This document shows positions 4,671 to 14,524 of a stretch of 64,000 nt of DNA, in pieces; positions within the stretch are counted from its first letter, which is position 1, and the number at the start of each line of letters is the position of its first letter. Origin of the DNA: Escherichia coli (lineage in GTDB: Bacteria > Pseudomonadota > Gammaproteobacteria > Enterobacterales > Enterobacteriaceae); the NCBI RefSeq assembly GCF_044324785.1, contig NZ_CP172127.1; one strand, given 5' to 3'. The notes beneath the pieces were generated by a model. It saw only the letters and a program-made list of their open reading frames with translations. It made no database searches and was not told where the DNA came from. The position numbers were made by a program, and so were the translations under genes.

Positions 4671-5114
4671 TCAGAACGACCAGTTCGCACCAGCCACCGC
4701 GTTCCACGGGGATTCCACACCGGCACCATGGCTATACCCCACCCCGAGATGCCCGCTTAACGAACTGCTGAATGAGGCTTTAATACCTGCCTGATATATT
4801 CCACGTCTGCCCGACAAATCATTGACAAAATTACCGTCATTATTCACTTTCACCCGGTTATCATCGACAAATTCTTTGCGCACAGCCATTTTCAGCCACG
4901 GCTCAACTTCCATGCCGTTCCCCAGACGCATGTTGTAACTCAGCGTTGCACCCAGTTCACGATATATACTGCGGGTATCGACTGATTTCGATTCCATGCC
5001 ATTGGATAAATGATAGTAGCGTCTAAGTGACCTTAGCTCTGCTGCAACATCATCCCGCAGGCACCAGACCAGGGGATTGATCCTGAAGAGGCAGCGCAAG
5101 TGTATTGTGTTCAC
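4671..5114 (-). pseudogene. ycgI: Autotransporter beta-barrel C-terminal remnant (ycgI-like)
   Basis: C-terminal ~90 aa (...GIKASFSSSLSGHLGVGYSHGAGVESPWNAVAGANWSF) resemble the end of an autotransporter translocator, terminal F; N-terminal part of the ORF is not protein-like and has no signal peptide or passenger. Confidence 0.65.
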
Positions 5115-8979: not shown

Positions 8980-9378
8980 AGATTAACCATCCATTCATTG
9001 GATTAACAAACATTCCTGGTCAAATAACCTATGAGTTCAGATTACCAAAACGGAGGGTAAAGACAAAAACAAAAGCACAAAAAATTTAAATAGATAAACA
9101 GCGACAATATATAAATGATAAATAAGTCGGCATTATCATTTTTCACCTTATTTTCATGACATTGATCACTTTGAGGTGACGATTTTGTTTAACAAATAAC
9201 TCTTCGACATCAAAACTATTAATAGTTGCCATAGAAATTATTTCAATGATATATAAAAACAACTGTGATAACACCAGGGTTGACAACTATTTGCGCAATA
9301 ATTCCTTTCCTTCAATGATCCAGGCATTCACTGCCAGCAACCCATTCAGCCGCATACTGACAGTGAGAAACTGAAAGA

Positions 9379-9597
9379 TTAGTGCTGATCCCTGTGGCTG
9401 ACGAGTCTTTCCCTTAATCGATTAACCAGATTGATCGCCAGCCAAACAAGGGCATTAAGCAAATTTATCGTCACAAGCACTTCTCCCAGCCCGGTACTGG
9501 GTTTTGCAATAAGGATGACCAGGAGAGTGATCAGCATAAATGCAATGGAAAAGATGATATAGAGAGTGAAATAATCCAGATTATTACTATTGTTCAT
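9379..9597 (-). CDS. ymgF: Small inner-membrane division-associated protein YmgF, ~72 aa
   Basis: Track ORF 84 aa; internal Met (MNNSNNLDYFTLYIIFSIAFML...) gives the expected 72 aa; two hydrophobic helices. Confidence 0.65.
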   Translation of the reverse strand: MNNSNNLDYFTLYIIFSIAFMLITLLVILIAKPSTGLGEVLVTINLLNALVWLAINLVNRLRERLVSHRDQH

Positions 9598-9728
9598 GCT
9601 ACTAATGGCAATCCTGTCAAAACTTTCAAACAATTATAGCAAACAAAATAATGAACAATAGTAACAAGAGGCAACGAGCTAATTAGCTGTCTATAATTAC
9701 ACCGCACCATGGCCTTGCTGATCAATTT

Positions 9729-11252
9729 TCACTCAACCACAACCTTCACCTTCGGTTTAGAAAGGATAATTTTGACCAGGTCGATGTATGTAACAGGTTT
9801 ATAGAAATAATAACCCTGCTGAAATGTGATATTATTTTGGTTCAGATAATCAAGTTGTTCTTTCGTTTCGACACCTTCAGCGACGATACTGATCGAAAGT
9901 TTACGCGCCAGATCCAATACACAATCCAGAATTCGGGTTGATTCTGGGTCTGCGTTGACGCGGCCAACGAAACTGTGATCAATTTTGATATAATCAATAT
10001 GCAGGTCATGCAGATAAGAAAGCCCTGAGTAGCCAGTACCGAAATCATCCAGCGCGATGACAAAACCATTTTCATGCAGAATGTTCAACCGCTGAACCAG
10101 ACTTTCATCAACATTTAATGGCTCACGCTCGGTAACTTCCAGAACGAGGTTTAAATCGCGGCGGGTAAAACTGTCACGGTAATTTAAGCACTCGTCGACA
10201 AACGTCGGCGAAATAATATGCGAGGCGCTAAAATTAATTCCAATATGAAAACCCTCCGGCAGTTTACTCGAGATAGCGTTCATCTGTCTGGCAACCTGAT
10301 TCATCAGGCTTTGCGTAAGCGGAACGATTAATCCGGATTTTTCAGCAAGTGGAATAAATGCCGCGGGTGATATATATCCACCGTGAGGTTGTTTCCAGCG
10401 GGCTAACACCTCAACTCCCCGCAATGTCCCTTCCCGACCATTTACCACAGGTTGGTAAAAAGGGACGATCTCCCCATTATTTATTGCCCGTCGCAGGATC
10501 TCTTCAGGCGTTGCGCTTTTATTGAAATATCTATCAAGCAGGAAGGCAGCGGCGCAGGCGATTAACAGAATAAATATCAAAATCCCAAAGCCTTTATCGA
10601 TAAGTCTGTAGAAGCTAAAGAGTGGCGGCGGGTTAAAGATAATAGTGAAATGATATTTTGTGGAGTGAACCTTCTCGGTATAGGGATAATGTCCATTAAG
10701 AGTCATCACATCACCCGTAGGTCCAATAATGTCATCCGCCACGCGTAATACATACCTTACCCCTTTCAAGGGTACATTAAGCGCTCCGCGAATATGCTGA
10801 TCACTTATCGTAACCAAAATGCGCGTATCTGCAAATTGGCTCTGATAGAGCAGGATAGGTAATCTATTAACGGTGTCGATTGCCGGAGCCAACAGTAAAT
10901 TACTGTCCGGGAAAACAGGAATACGAGACAGCAGGACCCGATTCCCCGGTAAGGATGTACACCAGACCGCTCCCTGTTTGAGAATGATGATTGTGCGCAG
11001 GTGAGGTTTCAGAGCTGCTTCAGTGCCAAGCTGATATTGCTCCTCGAGGTCGCATTCCTTCCCGGCAATGTTAACCGCCGTTTGAGTCGCCTGTGACGCT
11101 TCTTCAAGTATATGATTGATATTGTTGGCGGCATATCTTGCTCCCGCCAGGTACTCTGCTTTTGCGGAATACCAGAGCTGGATGTTCAAAATAGCGACAC
11201 CGGTTATAAACAAGCATATCGCAATGAGGATGGGTATGAGTGTATTGCGCAT
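9729..11252 (-). CDS. pdeG: CSS-domain / EAL-domain c-di-GMP phosphodiesterase PdeG (YcgG), 507 aa
   Basis: N-terminal TM helix, periplasmic region with cysteines, second TM, C-terminal EAL-type domain (EVLARW, DDFGTGYS motifs). Confidence 0.85.
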   Translation of the reverse strand: MRNTLIPILIAICLFITGVAILNIQLWYSAKAEYLAGARYAANNINHILEEASQATQTAVNIAGKECDLEEQYQLGTEAALKPHLRTIIILKQGAVWCTSLPGNRVLLSRIPVFPDSNLLLAPAIDTVNRLPILLYQSQFADTRILVTISDQHIRGALNVPLKGVRYVLRVADDIIGPTGDVMTLNGHYPYTEKVHSTKYHFTIIFNPPPLFSFYRLIDKGFGILIFILLIACAAAFLLDRYFNKSATPEEILRRAINNGEIVPFYQPVVNGREGTLRGVEVLARWKQPHGGYISPAAFIPLAEKSGLIVPLTQSLMNQVARQMNAISSKLPEGFHIGINFSASHIISPTFVDECLNYRDSFTRRDLNLVLEVTEREPLNVDESLVQRLNILHENGFVIALDDFGTGYSGLSYLHDLHIDYIKIDHSFVGRVNADPESTRILDCVLDLARKLSISIVAEGVETKEQLDYLNQNNITFQQGYYFYKPVTYIDLVKIILSKPKVKVVVE

Positions 11253-11587
11253 TCACTTGTCCCGGCCAAAGGGTTTAATACATAAAAATGACATTCATTC
11301 GCTCGCGCTGGCGTCTACAGAGAGCATGGTAGAGAGCATCACAAATATCCACGCCGAAGATAAAATTTTCTCCATCTTCATCTAACCTATTAATTATTGA
11401 GCATAATGTAGGCAGAATTAAACAAATTAGGCGGGATATCAGGCGTCAAGAATGGAAAACGAGCGCTCTCCATTCTTGTTGGCTCCCTGATATTGCGGAT
11501 ATATTAAGAAAGCATAACGCCTGAAATGCTCACTTTGCACCAGCATGGTGATACATCTGATCTTTATTCTAAAGCCTTCCACAAGTT

Positions 11588-11836
11588 TTAAGAGAGCACG
11601 GATTCCCTGTCATTAATAATGATATCCGCTAGTGTAGTCTTATGCATTTCAATGTACTGCAAGATTTGCAGATAGAGATCAGAAAGAATCACACTGGTTT
11701 CATCTTTTAAACGCAAGCGTAAAGCCTGATCAATAATATGACTATCAACATATCCATGCGTCATGAACACCTCCCTCTCAAGATTTTTAAACAAAGCACA
11801 TTGAAAAATAAATCTCTCTGGGATTGAATTATTCAT
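11588..11836 (-). CDS. ymgC: YmgC, last gene of the ycgZ-ymgA-ariR-ymgC operon
   Basis: Track ORF 91 aa; internal Met MNNSIPERF... gives ~82 aa; synteny. Confidence 0.7.
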   Translation of the reverse strand: MNNSIPERFIFQCALFKNLEREVFMTHGYVDSHIIDQALRLRLKDETSVILSDLYLQILQYIEMHKTTLADIIINDRESVLS

Positions 11837-11948
11837 GTCAGCCTCGTAGGAATAGTGACCCAATAAAATTATGCTGTGTATAGTCTAAAGCGACAGACAA
11901 AAATAAGATGAATGAGTTTTCTAAAAACTTATACTTAACAATTAAAAG

Positions 11949-12215
11949 TTACATATCATCAGCTGTGTATCGCAACACGATTTCCAGTGTTTTTCTAATC
12001 ACATCAGCTTTAAGAATATCATTTGTTGTTTCCAGGGAGTGTATCAGACTTAAGATAATATTTTTATTATTAACATTATCGCCTGAAAGCATTAAATTGG
12101 TCACAGCCTGCCCTAACACAGCTGACTCTTCTTCTAACAAATTACCTGAACTACGAAAGTAACTTGATAACGCTTTATCAGTTATTGCATTATGAATAGT
12201 AGTATCTTCAAGCAT
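11949..12215 (-). CDS. ariR: Biofilm/acid-resistance connector AriR (YmgB), 88 aa
   Basis: 88 aa; third gene of the ycgZ operon. Confidence 0.8.
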
Positions 12216-12243
12216 GGTAACCTCTCATCTTACTTATGAAATT

Positions 12244-12516
12244 TTAATGTATTCTGTTTATTTTCTTACCATTGAACATACTTTTATTGTCAGCTATCGC
12301 TGTTCTTCTGTTTGGCCCTCCTGTATCACTGTTGCTAAAATCACGAATTATGCTGTCAATTAAATCTCGTCGGAAAGCATTTTCCTCAGCCGATTTCATT
12401 ACGAGTAATTGCTTAATAAGAGTCTGCAACGAAAAATTTATCTTCATGCGCAGTATATGGAGCACCGCCTGGCCAGTAATTTCATATTTTATACTTTCAT
12501 TATCAGATGTCTTCAT
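12244..12516 (-). CDS. ymgA: YmgA, 90 aa
   Basis: 90 aa; second gene of the ycgZ operon. Confidence 0.8.
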   Translation of the reverse strand: MKTSDNESIKYEITGQAVLHILRMKINFSLQTLIKQLLVMKSAEENAFRRDLIDSIIRDFSNSDTGGPNRRTAIADNKSMFNGKKINRIH

Positions 12517-12558
12517 AACGACTTCATAGCTAACCTGTTAAATACTCAGGCTGTTGCA

Positions 12559-12795
12559 TTATTCAAAAAGCAACCCAATTAGTGCATTATAATGTTTCTG
12601 TTCCTCTTCCCCTGTCGCTTGTTCCAGTCGGCAAAGAAGTTTGGCACAAAGCGACTTTCGACTCAGATTACGTCCATCTTTCAAAATCTCAGTCACAATT
12701 TCCCCGAGAGTTTCCTGCTGAGTAGGCAAGTTAGCTTTTGCAAAGTAACGAGTGATTGCTCCCGCAGAATCTGAAGTCACTGAATTTTGATGCAT
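12559..12795 (-). CDS. ycgZ: YcgZ, 78 aa
   Basis: 78 aa; divergent from bluF. Confidence 0.8.
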   Translation of the reverse strand: MHQNSVTSDSAGAITRYFAKANLPTQQETLGEIVTEILKDGRNLSRKSLCAKLLCRLEQATGEEEQKHYNALIGLLFE

Positions 12796-12850
12796 GCTAC
12801 GCCTCTGTTAAAAATGTTAATCAATGTTAAGTGAGGTAACAATAGCAAAC

Positions 12851-12870
12851 TTGTACGAAATATGTGTACA
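12851..12870. promoter_or_regulatory. TGTAC-containing inverted half-sites in the ycgZ-bluF intergenic region, candidate BluR operator
   Basis: ttgtacgaaatatgtgtaca; resembles the TGTACA half-sites of the MlrA/BluR family. Confidence 0.4.
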
Positions 12871-13108
12871 GAATGATAAATTAATTTTTTGCAATTAGTG
12901 CTAATGCATATAAAACAATGCCTTATGATATAAAATATTGCATCATTTAAATGACAACCTATACAATGTTTTTCGCCAAATCGTCTTCAACTTTTTCCAC
13001 TTTTTATCAATGTAAAGAAACGGTTATGTTTTGGTATTAAAAGAAAGACACAAGAAGATATGTCTGTTACCGTCTTACTCTCGCCTCGCCCATTACCCTG
13101 GATTGTTA

Positions 13109-14320
13109 ATGCTTACCACCCTTATTTATCGTAGCCATATACGTGACGACGAACCTGTCAAAAAAATCGAAGAAATGGTTTCGATAGCAAATCGCAGGAA
13201 CATGCAGTCTGATGTAACAGGGATCTTACTGTTTAATGGTTCTCATTTTTTCCAGCTTCTGGAAGGTCCGGAAGAACAGGTTCAACTGATATTTCGGGCT
13301 ATATGTCAGGATCCACGGCACTATAATATTGTTGAACTGTTGTGCGATTACGCGCCTGCTCGCCGTTTTGGCAAAGCAGGAATGGAATTATTTGATTTAC
13401 GCCTGCACGAGCGAGATGACGTTTTACAGGCCGTATTCGACAAGGGTACATCAAAATTTCAGCTAACTTATGATGACAGAGCGCTACAATTTTTTCGTAC
13501 TTTTGTCCTTGCAACCGAACAATCAACCTATTTCGAGATCCCTGCTGAAGACTCCTGGCTTTTTATCGCTGACGGATCTGATAAAGAACTTGATTCCTGC
13601 ACCCTTTCACCAAATATAAACGACCACTTTGCCTTTCATCCTATTGTCGATCCCTTATCGCGGCGGATAATCGCTTTTGAAGCCATTGTGCAAAAAAATG
13701 AAGACAGCCCGTCAGCTATAGCGGTTGGGCAGCGTAAAGAAGGGGAAATCTACACAGCGGATCTCAAAAGTAAGGCGCTTGCATTCGCGATGGCACACAC
13801 ACTTGACCTCGGTGACAAAATGATTTCAATCAATCTATTACCTATGACCCTGGTTAACGAGCCTGATGCAGTCTCTTTTTTACTTGATGAAATAAAGGCC
13901 AATGGCCTGGTGCCGGAACAAATCATCGTTGAATTTACCGAAAGTGAAGTCATATCTCGGTTTGATGAGTTTGCCGAAGCGGTTAAATCGTTAAAGGCTG
14001 CCGGTATCAGTGTAGCAATTGATCATTTTGGCGCAGGTTTTGCCGGTTTGTTACTCCTGTCACGCTTCCAGCCTGACAGAATTAAAATCAGTCAGGAATT
14101 GATTACCAACGTTCATAAAAGCGGGCCACGGCAGGCAATTATTCAGGCGATCATAAAATGCTGTACATCACTTGAAATTCAAGTCTCTGCTATGGGTGTG
14201 ACAACACCAGAAGAGTGGATGTGGCTTGAATCTGCAGGAATTGAGATGTTTCAGGGAGATCTGTTTGCGAAAGCTAAATTGAATGGTATCCCTTCAGTTG
14301 CGTGGCCGGAGAAAAAATAA
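13109..14320 (+). CDS. bluF: Blue-light sensing BLUF/EAL protein BluF (YcgF), 403 aa
   Basis: Track ORF extended to 13031; ATG at 13109 gives MLTTLIYRSHIRDDEPV..., BLUF domain then degenerate EAL domain. Confidence 0.9.
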   Translation: MLTTLIYRSHIRDDEPVKKIEEMVSIANRRNMQSDVTGILLFNGSHFFQLLEGPEEQVQLIFRAICQDPRHYNIVELLCDYAPARRFGKAGMELFDLRLHERDDVLQAVFDKGTSKFQLTYDDRALQFFRTFVLATEQSTYFEIPAEDSWLFIADGSDKELDSCTLSPNINDHFAFHPIVDPLSRRIIAFEAIVQKNEDSPSAIAVGQRKEGEIYTADLKSKALAFAMAHTLDLGDKMISINLLPMTLVNEPDAVSFLLDEIKANGLVPEQIIVEFTESEVISRFDEFAEAVKSLKAAGISVAIDHFGAGFAGLLLLSRFQPDRIKISQELITNVHKSGPRQAIIQAIIKCCTSLEIQVSAMGVTTPEEWMWLESAGIEMFQGDLFAKAKLNGIPSVAWPEKK

Positions 14321-14440
14321 TTTTCAGCACATTATTTCGCATGATTTCTGGAAATCATCGTGAAAATGAATACGTTATGTTTTAATTTAATCCACATTAA
14401 AAATAATGTTTCATCCAATTTAGCTGAAATCTTATTTATA

Positions 14441-14491
14441 CTTTGTACAATTTTAGCGTATATTGTACAAAGTATTATTGGGTCGTGTACA
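14441..14491. promoter_or_regulatory. Three TGTACA palindromes upstream of bluR, candidate MerR-family (BluR) operator
   Basis: ctTTGTACAAttttagcgtatatTGTACAAAgtattattgggtcgTGTACAgg; the first two copies form a perfect 10-bp inverted repeat. Confidence 0.5.
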
Positions 14492-14524
14492 GGCGACGGA
14501 GATTTATGACCGCAAGGAGGAATT

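Follow-up and report, generated by a model that had tools for sequence, protein, structure and literature searches.

A polymorphic single-copy stem-loop between ymgC and pdeG of Escherichia coli, possibly marking the 3' end of the ycgZ-ymgA-ariR-ymgC mRNA

The window analyzed here (i.e., a whole stretch of 64,000 nucleotides of E. coli DNA, contig NZ_CP172127.1) includes the spacer between pdeG and ymgC, the latter being the final gene of the ycgZ-ymgA-ariR-ymgC biofilm operon. An earlier note had placed an imperfect palindrome between these two genes, and this placement agrees with the list of open reading frames (ORFs) as well as with the RefSeq annotation of an identical strain. The ymgC gene lies directly upstream of the palindrome, with 95 nt between its stop codon and the hairpin described below, and the strand of the hairpin is the coding strand of both ymgC and pdeG; as these genes are co-oriented, the palindrome falls in a 3' UTR. 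Neither the shared direction of the two neighbors nor the presence of a U-rich stretch a short distance downstream had been recorded in the earlier note. On a Northern blot, ycgZ-ymgA-ariR-ymgC was detected as one discrete polycistronic mRNA (PMC3509220). The features of the locus are listed in Table 1.

Table 1. Features of the ymgC-pdeG region and parts of the hairpin in the window allele (positions refer to the window)
Feature	Position	Strand	Description
ymgC	11588-11836	-	ORF list; RefSeq annotation of identical strain N3 and of K-12 strains
47-codon ORF crossing the hairpin	11439-11582		ORF list
Near-copy of the 5' arm, direct, upstream	11517-11527	-	AUUUCAGGCGU; could replace the 5' arm in pairing with the 3' arm ACGCCUGAUAU
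Whole stem-loop	11436-11493 (11432-11497 including weak closing pairs)	-	Outer helix, internal loop, inner helix, apical loop
Outer helix, 5' arm	11486-11493	-	AUAUCAGG; pairs with 11436-11443
Internal loop, 5' side	11479-11485	-	GAGCCAA in the window allele; diversity peak, 0.12-0.18
Inner helix	11447-11478	-	14 pairs, including two G-U pairs in the window allele
Inner helix, 5' arm	11478-11465	-	CAAGAAUGGAGAGC
Inner helix, apical loop	11464-11461	-	GCUC, 4 nt
Inner helix, 3' arm	11460-11447	-	GUUUUCCAUUCUUG
Outer helix, 3' arm	11436-11443	-	CCUGAUAU; low-diversity side, pi 0.01-0.03
U-rich run	11416-11429	-	UAAUUUGUUUAAUU; read from the sequence
Small ORF, unannotated, conserved	11295-11381	-	28 codons, MKMEKILSSAWIFVMLSTMLSVDASASE; context, outside the hairpin
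pdeG (ycgG)	9729-11252	-	Encodes a c-di-GMP phosphodiesterase with an EAL domain; located beyond the 3' side of the hairpin; ORF list and RefSeq

On its upstream side, the small ORF is 55 nt away from the hairpin, and on its downstream side, 42 nt separate it from the start codon of pdeG. This ORF is intact in every undisrupted allele, with one or the other of two in-frame ATG codons retained, and it had no entry in annotation or protein collections. The 47-codon ORF was rejected as a coding sequence because a 4-nt indel between haplotypes shifts its reading frame. Elements of the IS3 family also have an insertion hot spot in this spacer. The hairpin itself was without annotation in the genomes checked, including that of MG1655, and a search of Rfam 15 found nothing that overlapped it at an E-value of 10 or below (positions 9000-14500), and nothing at the gathering score across the whole window.

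The palindrome was present, although not at the coordinates first assigned to it (11420-11490); the sequence quoted in the earlier note is located at 11431-11498. Its description as a nested imperfect palindrome was borne out, as we found a perfect 9-bp inner repeat (AAGAATGGA / TCCATTCTT, 11448-11456 / 11469-11477) along with a perfect 8-bp outer repeat (ATATCAGG / CCTGATAT, 11436-11443 / 11486-11493). The 9-bp repeat is the perfect portion of a 15-nt inner inverted repeat (11447-11461 / 11464-11478) for which a repeat search gave 87% complementarity. The window allele consequently reads as helices of 14 and 8 bp that are separated by a 7 x 3 internal loop, with five G-C pairs among the 14 pairs of the inner helix. 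The U-rich run begins 6 nt past the outer helix, after a C-rich spacer (CCCGCC); its U-richness is retained in other haplotypes, while the sequence itself is variable. The near-copy of the 5' arm forms an 11-nt inverted repeat with the 3' arm (91% complementary) and is invariant in nine E. coli alleles. As the N96-type haplotype has AUUUAAGUCGU at this site and loses the match, the alternative pairing is not conserved and was rejected.

The hairpin was present once per genome in approx. 4,950 of 5,426 complete E. coli genomes, and a 32-nt arm query of E. coli genomes matched only the two arms of this same single site. No second match was observed in the 64-kb window with up to 3 mismatches allowed, the exact arm 21-mer had no match in 100,044 species representatives, and no copy was found in a phage collection. 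Matches in a plasmid collection were all to E. coli records typed as non-mobilizable, several of which were chromosome-sized; these matches were therefore read as mislabelled chromosomal DNA. A search with the YmgC protein for orthologous loci in other species yielded 71 pattern matches, none of which was confirmed, and hence no outgroup.

Within E. coli, the majority form of the element is a K-12-type allele, found in at least 2,854 genomes, which carries an uninterrupted 25-bp helix at the same site. In this allele, the segment at 11479-11485 is replaced by the three nucleotides UGU (CGU in strain PEC1003 and in metagenome locus L070), which pair with the opposite ACG/ACA and fuse the two helices. 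Fully perfect 24-bp arms were found with a T-A pair in strain B1 and with a C-G pair in PEC1003 and L070. Interrupted alleles that share the 14-bp core are present in approx. 1,650 genomes as well as in a haplotype that is 16% diverged; in the interrupted alleles other than that of the window, the segment reads GGGCAAA, GUUUAAA or GGUUAAA. Reverse-complementing GGAGAGCG, on the 5' side of the window allele, gives exactly the 3' apex of K-12, CGCTCTCC, and the loops of different haplotypes, when compared by eye, were not reverse complements of each other. Judged by its sequence, the window allele appears to be a degraded form of the K-12-type helix. The earlier note, for its part, had missed that this allele is degenerate as compared to the 25-bp helix carried by most E. 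coli.

Folding in both orientations gave structures that were better than those of shuffled sequences, i.e., -29.4 kcal/mol for the - strand RNA of the window allele (z = -4.33; 0 of 200 shuffles as good) and -28.0 kcal/mol for the + strand RNA (z = -3.26; 1 of 200 shuffles as good). In a 70-nt sliding fold across the whole window, the hairpin ranked approx. 213th of 25,572 by raw energy (top 0.8%), and its surroundings are AT-rich. The K-12 allele, with its uninterrupted helix, reached -46.1 kcal/mol on 121 nt (z = -8.9), or -44.5 kcal/mol for the 66-nt hairpin alone; the corresponding values for the N96-type allele were -30.1 kcal/mol and z = -5.3. For the interrupted alleles, the sense fold was more stable than the antisense fold, and the outer helix of the N96-type allele was better on the antisense (+) strand. 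The palindrome is confirmed as a real, single-copy, E. coli-specific stem-loop.

Conservation of the pairing was assessed on 14 alleles representing three deep haplotypes, obtained from E. coli genomes and gut metagenomes. MAFFT put the 4-nt gap out of register with the structure, and pair counts were taken from a re-alignment with N padding. All 196 cells of the inner helix were paired across the 14 alleles, and the five pairs that vary do so in a pair-preserving manner; for the outer helix, 95.5% of the cells were paired. Pair 34-41, for example, is G-U in seven alleles, G-C in four and A-U in three. Double-sided covariation was confined to this pair, and covariation was not significant against shuffle controls, so that the covariation check set out in the earlier note gave a signal that is present but weak. 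Variable columns were significantly less frequent among paired positions (9 of 44) than among unpaired positions (10 of 14; P = 0.0008, Fisher's exact test). The stems differ at 3 to 4 of 44 positions, which is approximately the neutral rate (4-15% at third codon positions), while unpaired positions differ at 8 of 14 between the window and K-12 alleles and at 7 of 14 between the window and N96-type alleles. As the stems evolve at a near-neutral rate, the signal consists of pair-preserving change and hypervariable loops. Within the element, conservation is highest along the 3' arm, its unpaired ACG included.

The polymorphisms of the inner helix also differ in their effect on the two strands, as each of the five gives a wobble pair when read on the - strand and an A-C mismatch when read on the + strand. 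In a set of 11 alleles, 154 of 154 inner-helix cells were paired on the - strand as compared to 131 of 154 on the + strand. A hand tally, which covered the sets of 11 and 14 alleles and also took in the outermost closing pair and three pairs present in K-12 only, found approx. 8 changes that keep the sense pair, as compared to 2 to 3 that keep the antisense pair only. The asymmetry of these wobble changes is only suggestive (one-sided P of approx. 0.03 for 5/5; P = 0.055 for 8/10). Overall, the proposal of a regulatory RNA structure made in the earlier note is weakly supported, given that pairing is kept while loops diverge and that wobbles are sense-only; no regulatory role is indicated.

The stem-loop of an intrinsic terminator (G+C-rich, approx. 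5-14 bp, closing a transcription unit) has its counterpart in the 14-bp inner helix, and the hairpin resembles such terminators in its position behind the final operon gene and in having a U-rich stretch at some distance on its 3' side. Unlike in intrinsic terminators, however, this U-rich run is interrupted and starts 6 nt (window) to approx. 9 nt past the helix; it fails the terminator consensus because it is too distant from the stem. The K-12 stem of 25 bp is also atypically long for a terminator. Neither strand of the window allele or of the K-12 allele gave a terminator-like site in a consensus scan. A canonical intrinsic terminator was thus rejected, as no U-tract occurs 0-2 nt after the stem, where the next bases are CCCGCC. 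The same conclusion had been drawn in the earlier note, and its statement that neither strand has a U-tract is true of a tract adjacent to the stem. A profile of C over G as an indicator of Rho loading showed no C-rich, G-poor region upstream of the hairpin; a short C-rich stretch with 18 C and 8 G in 60 nt covers the 3' arm and the bases just downstream.

A transcript through the region, for which the earlier note had asked, is in part implied by published data. Transcripts of ymgC were detected by RT-PCR with a 3' primer whose end is at +355 (PMC1636475), which implies a sense transcript that reaches the 5' arm of the hairpin if +355 is counted from the ymgC start. The ymgC mRNA was not polyadenylated in the same study, which ties polyadenylation to Rho-independent terminators (PMC1636475); this observation fits the lack of an intrinsic terminator and sets the ymgC transcript apart from intrinsically terminated mRNAs. 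Term-seq at 37 C, on the other hand, lists no 3' end and no bicyclomycin-sensitive site in MG1655 positions 1,216,990-1,217,399, which says little because the operon is weakly expressed under those conditions. The supplements of TERMITe, a Term-seq re-analysis, do not mention these genes.

Mapping of E. coli 3' ends by Dar and Sorek in 2018 reportedly describes stem-loops in 3' UTRs that stabilize Rho-terminated or processed mRNAs, a class that functionally includes REP-type hairpins. The hairpin studied here resembles this class in that it is stable, lacks an adjacent U-tract, and is located between genes on the same strand, after an operon with a discrete mRNA. A stable sense-strand hairpin in the 3' UTR, as is expected of a protective stem-loop, was found across alleles (z from -4.3 to -8.9). 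Unlike members of the class, it has no 3' end listed in the 37 C Term-seq data, obtained while the operon was weakly expressed; unlike REP elements, its sequence is unique and single-copy, and the K-12 stem is much longer than that of the usual 3'-UTR stem-loop. Intramolecular RNase III substrates in mRNAs, e.g., the rnc leader and the rpsO-pnp intercistronic hairpin, represent another system for comparison. RNase III accommodates approx. 22 bp of double-stranded RNA (PMC6212723); this length is exceeded by the 25 contiguous bp of the K-12-type allele and also reached by a recombinant allele (L068), in contrast to the window allele with its 14 and 8 bp split by the internal loop.

We tentatively favor, as the best explanation, a 3'-UTR RNA stem-loop that marks or protects the end of the ycgZ-ymgA-ariR-ymgC mRNA, a reading that we consider quite possible. 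Transcription that passes ymgC would stop farther on through a non-intrinsic mechanism, or the RNA would be processed, and 3'-to-5' exonucleases would then trim the transcript back as far as the hairpin. The outcome would be a discrete polycistronic operon mRNA that is separate from pdeG expression; in K-12-type strains, the 25-bp helix would be long enough to serve as an RNase III substrate. In this model, we infer that the hairpin would be transcribed through, that 3' ends would map to it, and that it may affect mRNA stability or pdeG.

Several other explanations were weighed against a 3'-UTR stem-loop. Quasi-palindromes in E. coli are hot spots for template-switch mutations, and the element could represent such a DNA sequence, with no selected function, that was made and re-"corrected" by intramolecular template switching during replication. 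Template switching keeps arms complementary and makes unpaired positions mutation hot spots, which matches the neutral-rate stems and hypervariable loops observed here. The differences between window and K-12 alleles (GAGCCAA to TGT; CGCTCTCC versus GGAGAGCG) are clustered and resemble complex, single palindrome-perfecting events, alleles with perfect 24-bp arms exist (B1, PEC1003, L070), and the hairpin has neither experimental function nor annotation. Being a mutational process, however, template switching gives Watson-Crick-perfect arms and accounts neither for G-U imperfections that are confined to the sense strand of the inner helix, nor for the stepwise G-C / G-U / A-U series at pair 34-41, nor for the persistence of interrupted 14-bp-core alleles in approx. 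1,650 genomes and in the 16%-diverged haplotype; we regard this explanation as rather unlikely. A site that acts at the DNA level, i.e., a binding site for a protein or RNA polymerase in a promoter of pdeG (or of the small ORF and pdeG), appeared to be less likely still. Such a site could consist of two 12-bp half-sites (CAAGAATGGAGA / TCTCCATTCTTG) separated by a constant 8 bp, with TTGACG in the 3' arm as the -35. The idea of a protein-binding site, also raised in the earlier note, was neither borne out nor refuted. In its favor are, both at fragment resolution, binding of RNA polymerase and H-NS reported for the ymgC-pdeG spacer by genomic SELEX, which described a sigma-70 "constitutive promoter" (PMC3946193), and a sigma-S ChIP-seq peak at 1,215,900-1,216,399 (older K-12 coordinates) that spans the hairpin (PMC4447067). 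In one RNA-seq data set, the pdeG signal exceeds the ymgC signal, which implies a separate pdeG promoter, and both the high conservation of the 3' arm with its unpaired ACG and a half-site spacing that is constant around a variable spacer sequence are as expected of a DNA site. On the other hand, the promoter proposed for pdeG (TTGACG-19-TATTTT, with the -35 within the 3' arm, from MG1655 position 1,217,131 on; PMC3946193) was rejected, as other haplotypes do not keep its -10 and instead have, with unchanged spacing, TGTTTA (window) or TGCTTA (N96-type). Scanning for consensus promoters gave none on the sense strand of the window or K-12 allele, and no known operator motif was recognized in the hairpin, from which the BluR/MlrA motif GTACA is absent. 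Moreover, spacer positions adjoining the half-sites, which would be free to vary in a DNA site, are complementary in all three haplotypes (AC..GT, GT..GC, GC..GT), a property not required of a protein site.

The remaining explanations place the hairpin in other transcripts or in a mobile element. Transcripts of the operon, or internal ariR-ymgC transcripts, could run on into the small ORF and pdeG, where the hairpin would be a 5'-leader structure that modulates read-through, processing (e.g., by RNase III) or translation. The genes are co-directional without an intrinsic terminator between them, internal promoters have been reported upstream of ymgA and ymgC (PMC3946193), the conserved small ORF follows closely, and the upstream near-copy offers an alternative pairing. 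However, this pairing is lost in the N96-type haplotype, the mRNA on the Northern blot is the discrete ycgZ-ymgABC transcript rather than a longer one (PMC3509220), and neither conserved ligand-like loops nor an Rfam match were observed; we consider a leader improbable. An RNA element of the + (antisense) strand, e.g., the 3' stem-loop of a transcript that starts opposite the small ORF, is very unlikely. The + strand also folds well, including the outer helix of the N96-type allele, and it has a promoter-like site at 11338-11366; this site is missing from the K-12 allele, however, and the total of 2 sites found is not above the shuffled mean of 2.6. Furthermore, the polymorphisms of the inner helix disrupt + strand pairs, no U-tract follows on the + strand, and Term-seq lists no antisense 3' end at this location. 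Least probable of all, to the point of being largely refuted, is a mobile-element remnant, in which the arms would be the terminal inverted repeats of a miniature element or insertion sequence, or the hairpin a member of a family of repeated extragenic palindromes. In the K-12 form, arms of 24 bp enclose a centre of 6 bp, a possible core is bordered by TA dinucleotides, and IS3-family elements do insert into this spacer; nonetheless, the reading was rejected on the single-copy status of the hairpin, as there is no other copy in the window, in species representatives, in genuine plasmids or in phages.

For the favored 3'-UTR stem-loop, the locus is of interest because neither the end of the operon transcript nor the insulation of pdeG was described in the literature searched or the annotations checked; an unannotated hairpin with pair-preserving changes, located exactly at the ymgC-pdeG junction, is an obvious candidate for the 3' boundary of the operon. 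With alleles that range from interrupted stems up to a perfect helix of 24-25 bp, the locus offers a natural experiment in which the length of a hairpin, its sensitivity to RNase III and template-switch mutation can be compared. Should the element merely be a neutral quasi-palindrome, its value would be that of a clean case of palindrome-driven evolution within one species. One can also speculate, at long odds, that the hairpin is a naturally polymorphic post-transcriptional switch, in which RNase III cuts the K-12-type helix and the internal loop spares the window-, O157/WP4- and N96-types. If this were true, the ycgZ-ymgA-ariR-ymgC mRNA, whose products feed into Rcs and biofilm control, would be more stable in some E. 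coli lineages than in others, the extent of read-through to the small ORF and on to pdeG would vary as well, and the alleles would interconvert through single template-switch mutations.

The palindrome noticed earlier does lie between pdeG and ymgC, as the gene positions confirm, but it occupies 11431-11498 rather than 11420-11490, a slight offset. A repeat search also bore out its nested architecture, recovering an inner inverted repeat and a perfect 8-bp outer repeat. Relative to the K-12 map, the gene order here is the reverse complement, and the ymgC-pdeG spacer matches that of strain N3 at 100% identity. When the region was folded in both orientations, as the earlier note had proposed, the - strand RNA, i.e., the sense strand of ymgC and pdeG, folded into an outer helix of 8 bp and, across a 7 x 3 internal loop, an inner helix of 14 bp that includes two G-U pairs and is capped by the loop GCUC (-29.4 kcal/mol; z = -4.33; 0 of 200 shuffles as good), while the + strand formed just 9-12 inner pairs (-28.0 kcal/mol; z = -3.26). 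By raw energy the hairpin ranks in the top 0.8% among 70-nt windows across the 64-kb window. No Rfam family matched it in searches of the locus and of the whole window, and none of the RefSeq genomes inspected, among them MG1655 (hairpin at 1,217,091-1,217,144), has a feature annotated at this site.

Features of the ymgC-pdeG region (window coordinates unless stated)
Feature	Position	Strand	Remark
bluF	13031-14320	+	
ycgZ	12559-12795	-	
ymgA	12244-12516	-	
ariR	11949-12215	-	
ymgC	11588-11836	-	
ymgC-pdeG spacer			335 bp
Outer inverted repeat	11436-11443 / 11486-11493		perfect, 8 bp; repeat search
Inner inverted repeat	11447-11461 / 11464-11478		repeat search
Sigma-70-like site ATCACA-17-TAAAAT	11338-11366	+	antisense to small ORF
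Small ORF MKMEKILSSAWIFVMLSTMLSVDASASE	11295-11381; MG1655 1,217,205-1,217,285	-	unannotated; between hairpin and pdeG
pdeG	9729-11252	-	
N96-type spacer haplotype	2455-2787 of L100 (strain 2013C-4282)		

Sampling of 21 E. coli genomes, together with 82 metagenome contigs located through a flanking 22-mer, yielded 14 distinct hairpin sequences in three deep haplotypes. In the K-12-type allele (exact K-12 sequence in at least 2,854 genomes), UGU replaces the 7-nt internal-loop segment and pairs with the opposite ACG, giving a single fused 25-bp stem, AUAUCAGGUGUCAAGAAUGGAGAGU-UCUC-GCUCUCCAUUCUUGACGCCUGAUAU. Its predicted energy (-46.1 kcal/mol on 121 nt, z = -8.9; -44.5 kcal/mol for the 66-nt hairpin alone) is stronger than that of every 70-nt fold in the window (best, -36.6). 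Wholly perfect 24-bp arms were found with a T-A pair in strain B1 and with a C-G pair in strain PEC1003 and one metagenome locus (L070). Approx. 1,650 genomes, with either the window allele or O157/WP4-type alleles, keep the internal loop. The N96-type haplotype (19 genomes), which diverges from the window allele by 16.5% over 169 bp, retains a perfect inner helix of 14 bp, here closed by another loop (UAUU). In strain 2013C-4282, this diverged spacer adjoins a ymgC coding for exactly the K-12 protein; this locus is thus a recombination mosaic. Third codon positions of pdeG in the same strain are 13-15% different.

With the alignment held in structural register, 100% of inner-helix cells were paired across the 14 alleles; 5 of the 14 pairs were variable and all variants pair (e.g., pair 34-41 is G-U in 7, G-C in 4 and A-U in 3 alleles). 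In the outer helix 95.5% of cells were paired. Variable columns were significantly rarer at paired (9/44) than at unpaired positions (10/14; P = 0.0008, Fisher's exact test). As zero two-sided changes were counted relative to the commonest pair (G-U at 34-41) and shuffle controls were not significant, there is no classical covariation signal. Stem positions diverge at approximately the neutral rate (3-5 of 44, vs. 4-15% for third codon positions in the genes on either side), whereas unpaired positions (11479-11485 and 11461-11464) differ by 50-57% between haplotypes. The pattern is one of pair-preserving change with hypervariable loops, and the latter suggest either a hot spot for mutation associated with the palindrome or complex template-switch events that recurred.

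Read on the - strand, each of the five inner-helix polymorphisms is a wobble pair (G-U or U-G); read on the + strand, each is an A-C mismatch (cells paired, 154/154 vs. 131/154). In a hand tally extended to the outermost closing pair and the three pairs found only in K-12, approx. 8 changes preserved pairing in the sense orientation vs. 2-3 that did so in the antisense orientation only (8/10, P = 0.055). Interrupted alleles also fold better in the sense orientation; the outer helix of the N96-type allele, however, is better on the antisense strand. Overall, these comparisons favour, but do not prove, a sense-strand RNA hairpin.

The spacer occurs once per genome in approx. 4,950-4,990 of 5,426 complete E. 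coli genomes. A 32-nt arm query of E. coli genomes matched only the two arms of this site, no further arm exists in the 64-kb window with up to 3 mismatches allowed, and the exact arm 21-mer is absent from all 100,044 species-representative genomes. The phage collection held no match. Every match in the plasmid collection was to an E. coli record typed as non-mobilizable; several of these records are chromosome-sized, and the matches were therefore read as mislabelled chromosomal DNA. A YmgC-based scan confirmed no relatives outside E. coli, in agreement with the published view of ymgC, ycgG and ymgF as E. coli-specific additions. Given these searches, the hairpin is unique and specific to this lineage, and it belongs to no repeat family.

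The 28-codon small ORF, whose product looks signal-peptide-like from its sequence, is intact in all undisrupted alleles, that of the 16%-diverged haplotype among them. No haplotype differs in the first 33 nt of the ORF; K-12-type alleles lose the first ATG and keep the second, and WP4/JNE-type alleles the reverse. It is absent from the MG1655 annotation, a 15-billion-protein collection and NCBIfam. The ORF contains an insertion hot spot, CTCTCTA|CC (equivalent to window ~11330-11335), where O157:H7 strain 4276 carries a 48-bp in-frame insertion (TGAACCGCCCCGGGTTTCCTGGAGAG...) that resembles a solitary IS3-family terminal repeat, and strain JCH8249 an annotated IS3-family transposase at the identical point. 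Two different deletions truncate pdeG (in strain WP4-S17-ESBL-03 and at locus L064), one matching the ycgG2-type allele known from extraintestinal pathogenic E. coli; the L064 deletion begins approx. 25 nt past the hairpin and eliminates the small ORF. The hairpin is intact in both.

Several specific roles were rejected. The stem is followed directly by CCCGCC, with a U-rich run (11416-11429) 6 nt off, and a terminator consensus scan was negative for the window and K-12 alleles, so the earlier judgment against a canonical intrinsic terminator holds. The sole ORF across the hairpin is broken by a 4-nt indel. A pdeG promoter proposed by genomic SELEX (TTGACG-19-TATTTT; PMC3946193) has its -35 within the hairpin 3' arm, but its -10 is not kept in other haplotypes. 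A conserved attenuator was considered as a near-copy of the 5' arm upstream (11517-11527) could pair with the 3' arm, but this copy is altered in the N96-type haplotype.

We consider a hairpin in the 3' UTR of the operon mRNA the most likely reading, albeit tentatively. Northern blots showed a single polycistronic ycgZ-ymgA-ariR-ymgC mRNA (PMC3509220), and ymgC mRNA was detected with 3' primer YMGC-355R (PMC1636475), which reaches the hairpin 5' arm if its number counts from the ymgC start codon. This mRNA is reportedly not polyadenylated, a modification tied by those authors to Rho-independent terminators. The transcript end sought at the hairpin is not listed: for MG1655 grown at 37 C, the tables from Term-seq and bicyclomycin treatment have no entry in 1,216,990-1,217,399, an absence that says little given that cold and light are what induce the operon; they do place a Rho-dependent site/3' end within ariR. 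In published RIL-seq and TRIC-seq interactomes the Rcs-controlled sRNA RprA reportedly contacts ariR, ymgA and ymgC, and interactome data include a candidate sRNA from the ariR-ymgC spacer (11837-11948).

The main rival, in which template switching shaped a DNA quasi-palindrome that has no function, would account for allele differences that are clustered and palindrome-perfecting, but does not fit the wobble bias toward the sense strand, and we regard it as unlikely. The other readings are less well supported. A DNA-level role as promoter or operator, distinctly unlikely, could draw on sigma-70 SELEX and H-NS binding (PMC3946193) and a sigma-S ChIP peak (PMC4447067) on the spacer, all at fragment resolution. 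A leader role for pdeG appears quite improbable, and an antisense RNA element very improbable, the + strand sigma-70-like site being missing from the K-12 allele and such sites being no more numerous than in shuffled sequence. Origin as a mobile-element remnant is extremely improbable for this single-copy site.

As a 3'-UTR element, the hairpin would define and protect the 3' end of the operon transcript and set the operon apart from pdeG; the K-12-type helix is also long enough for RNase III, which accommodates ~22 bp (PMC6212723). The hairpin is real, unannotated, pairing-preserved and of a familiar kind, and its main value lies in its allelic series.
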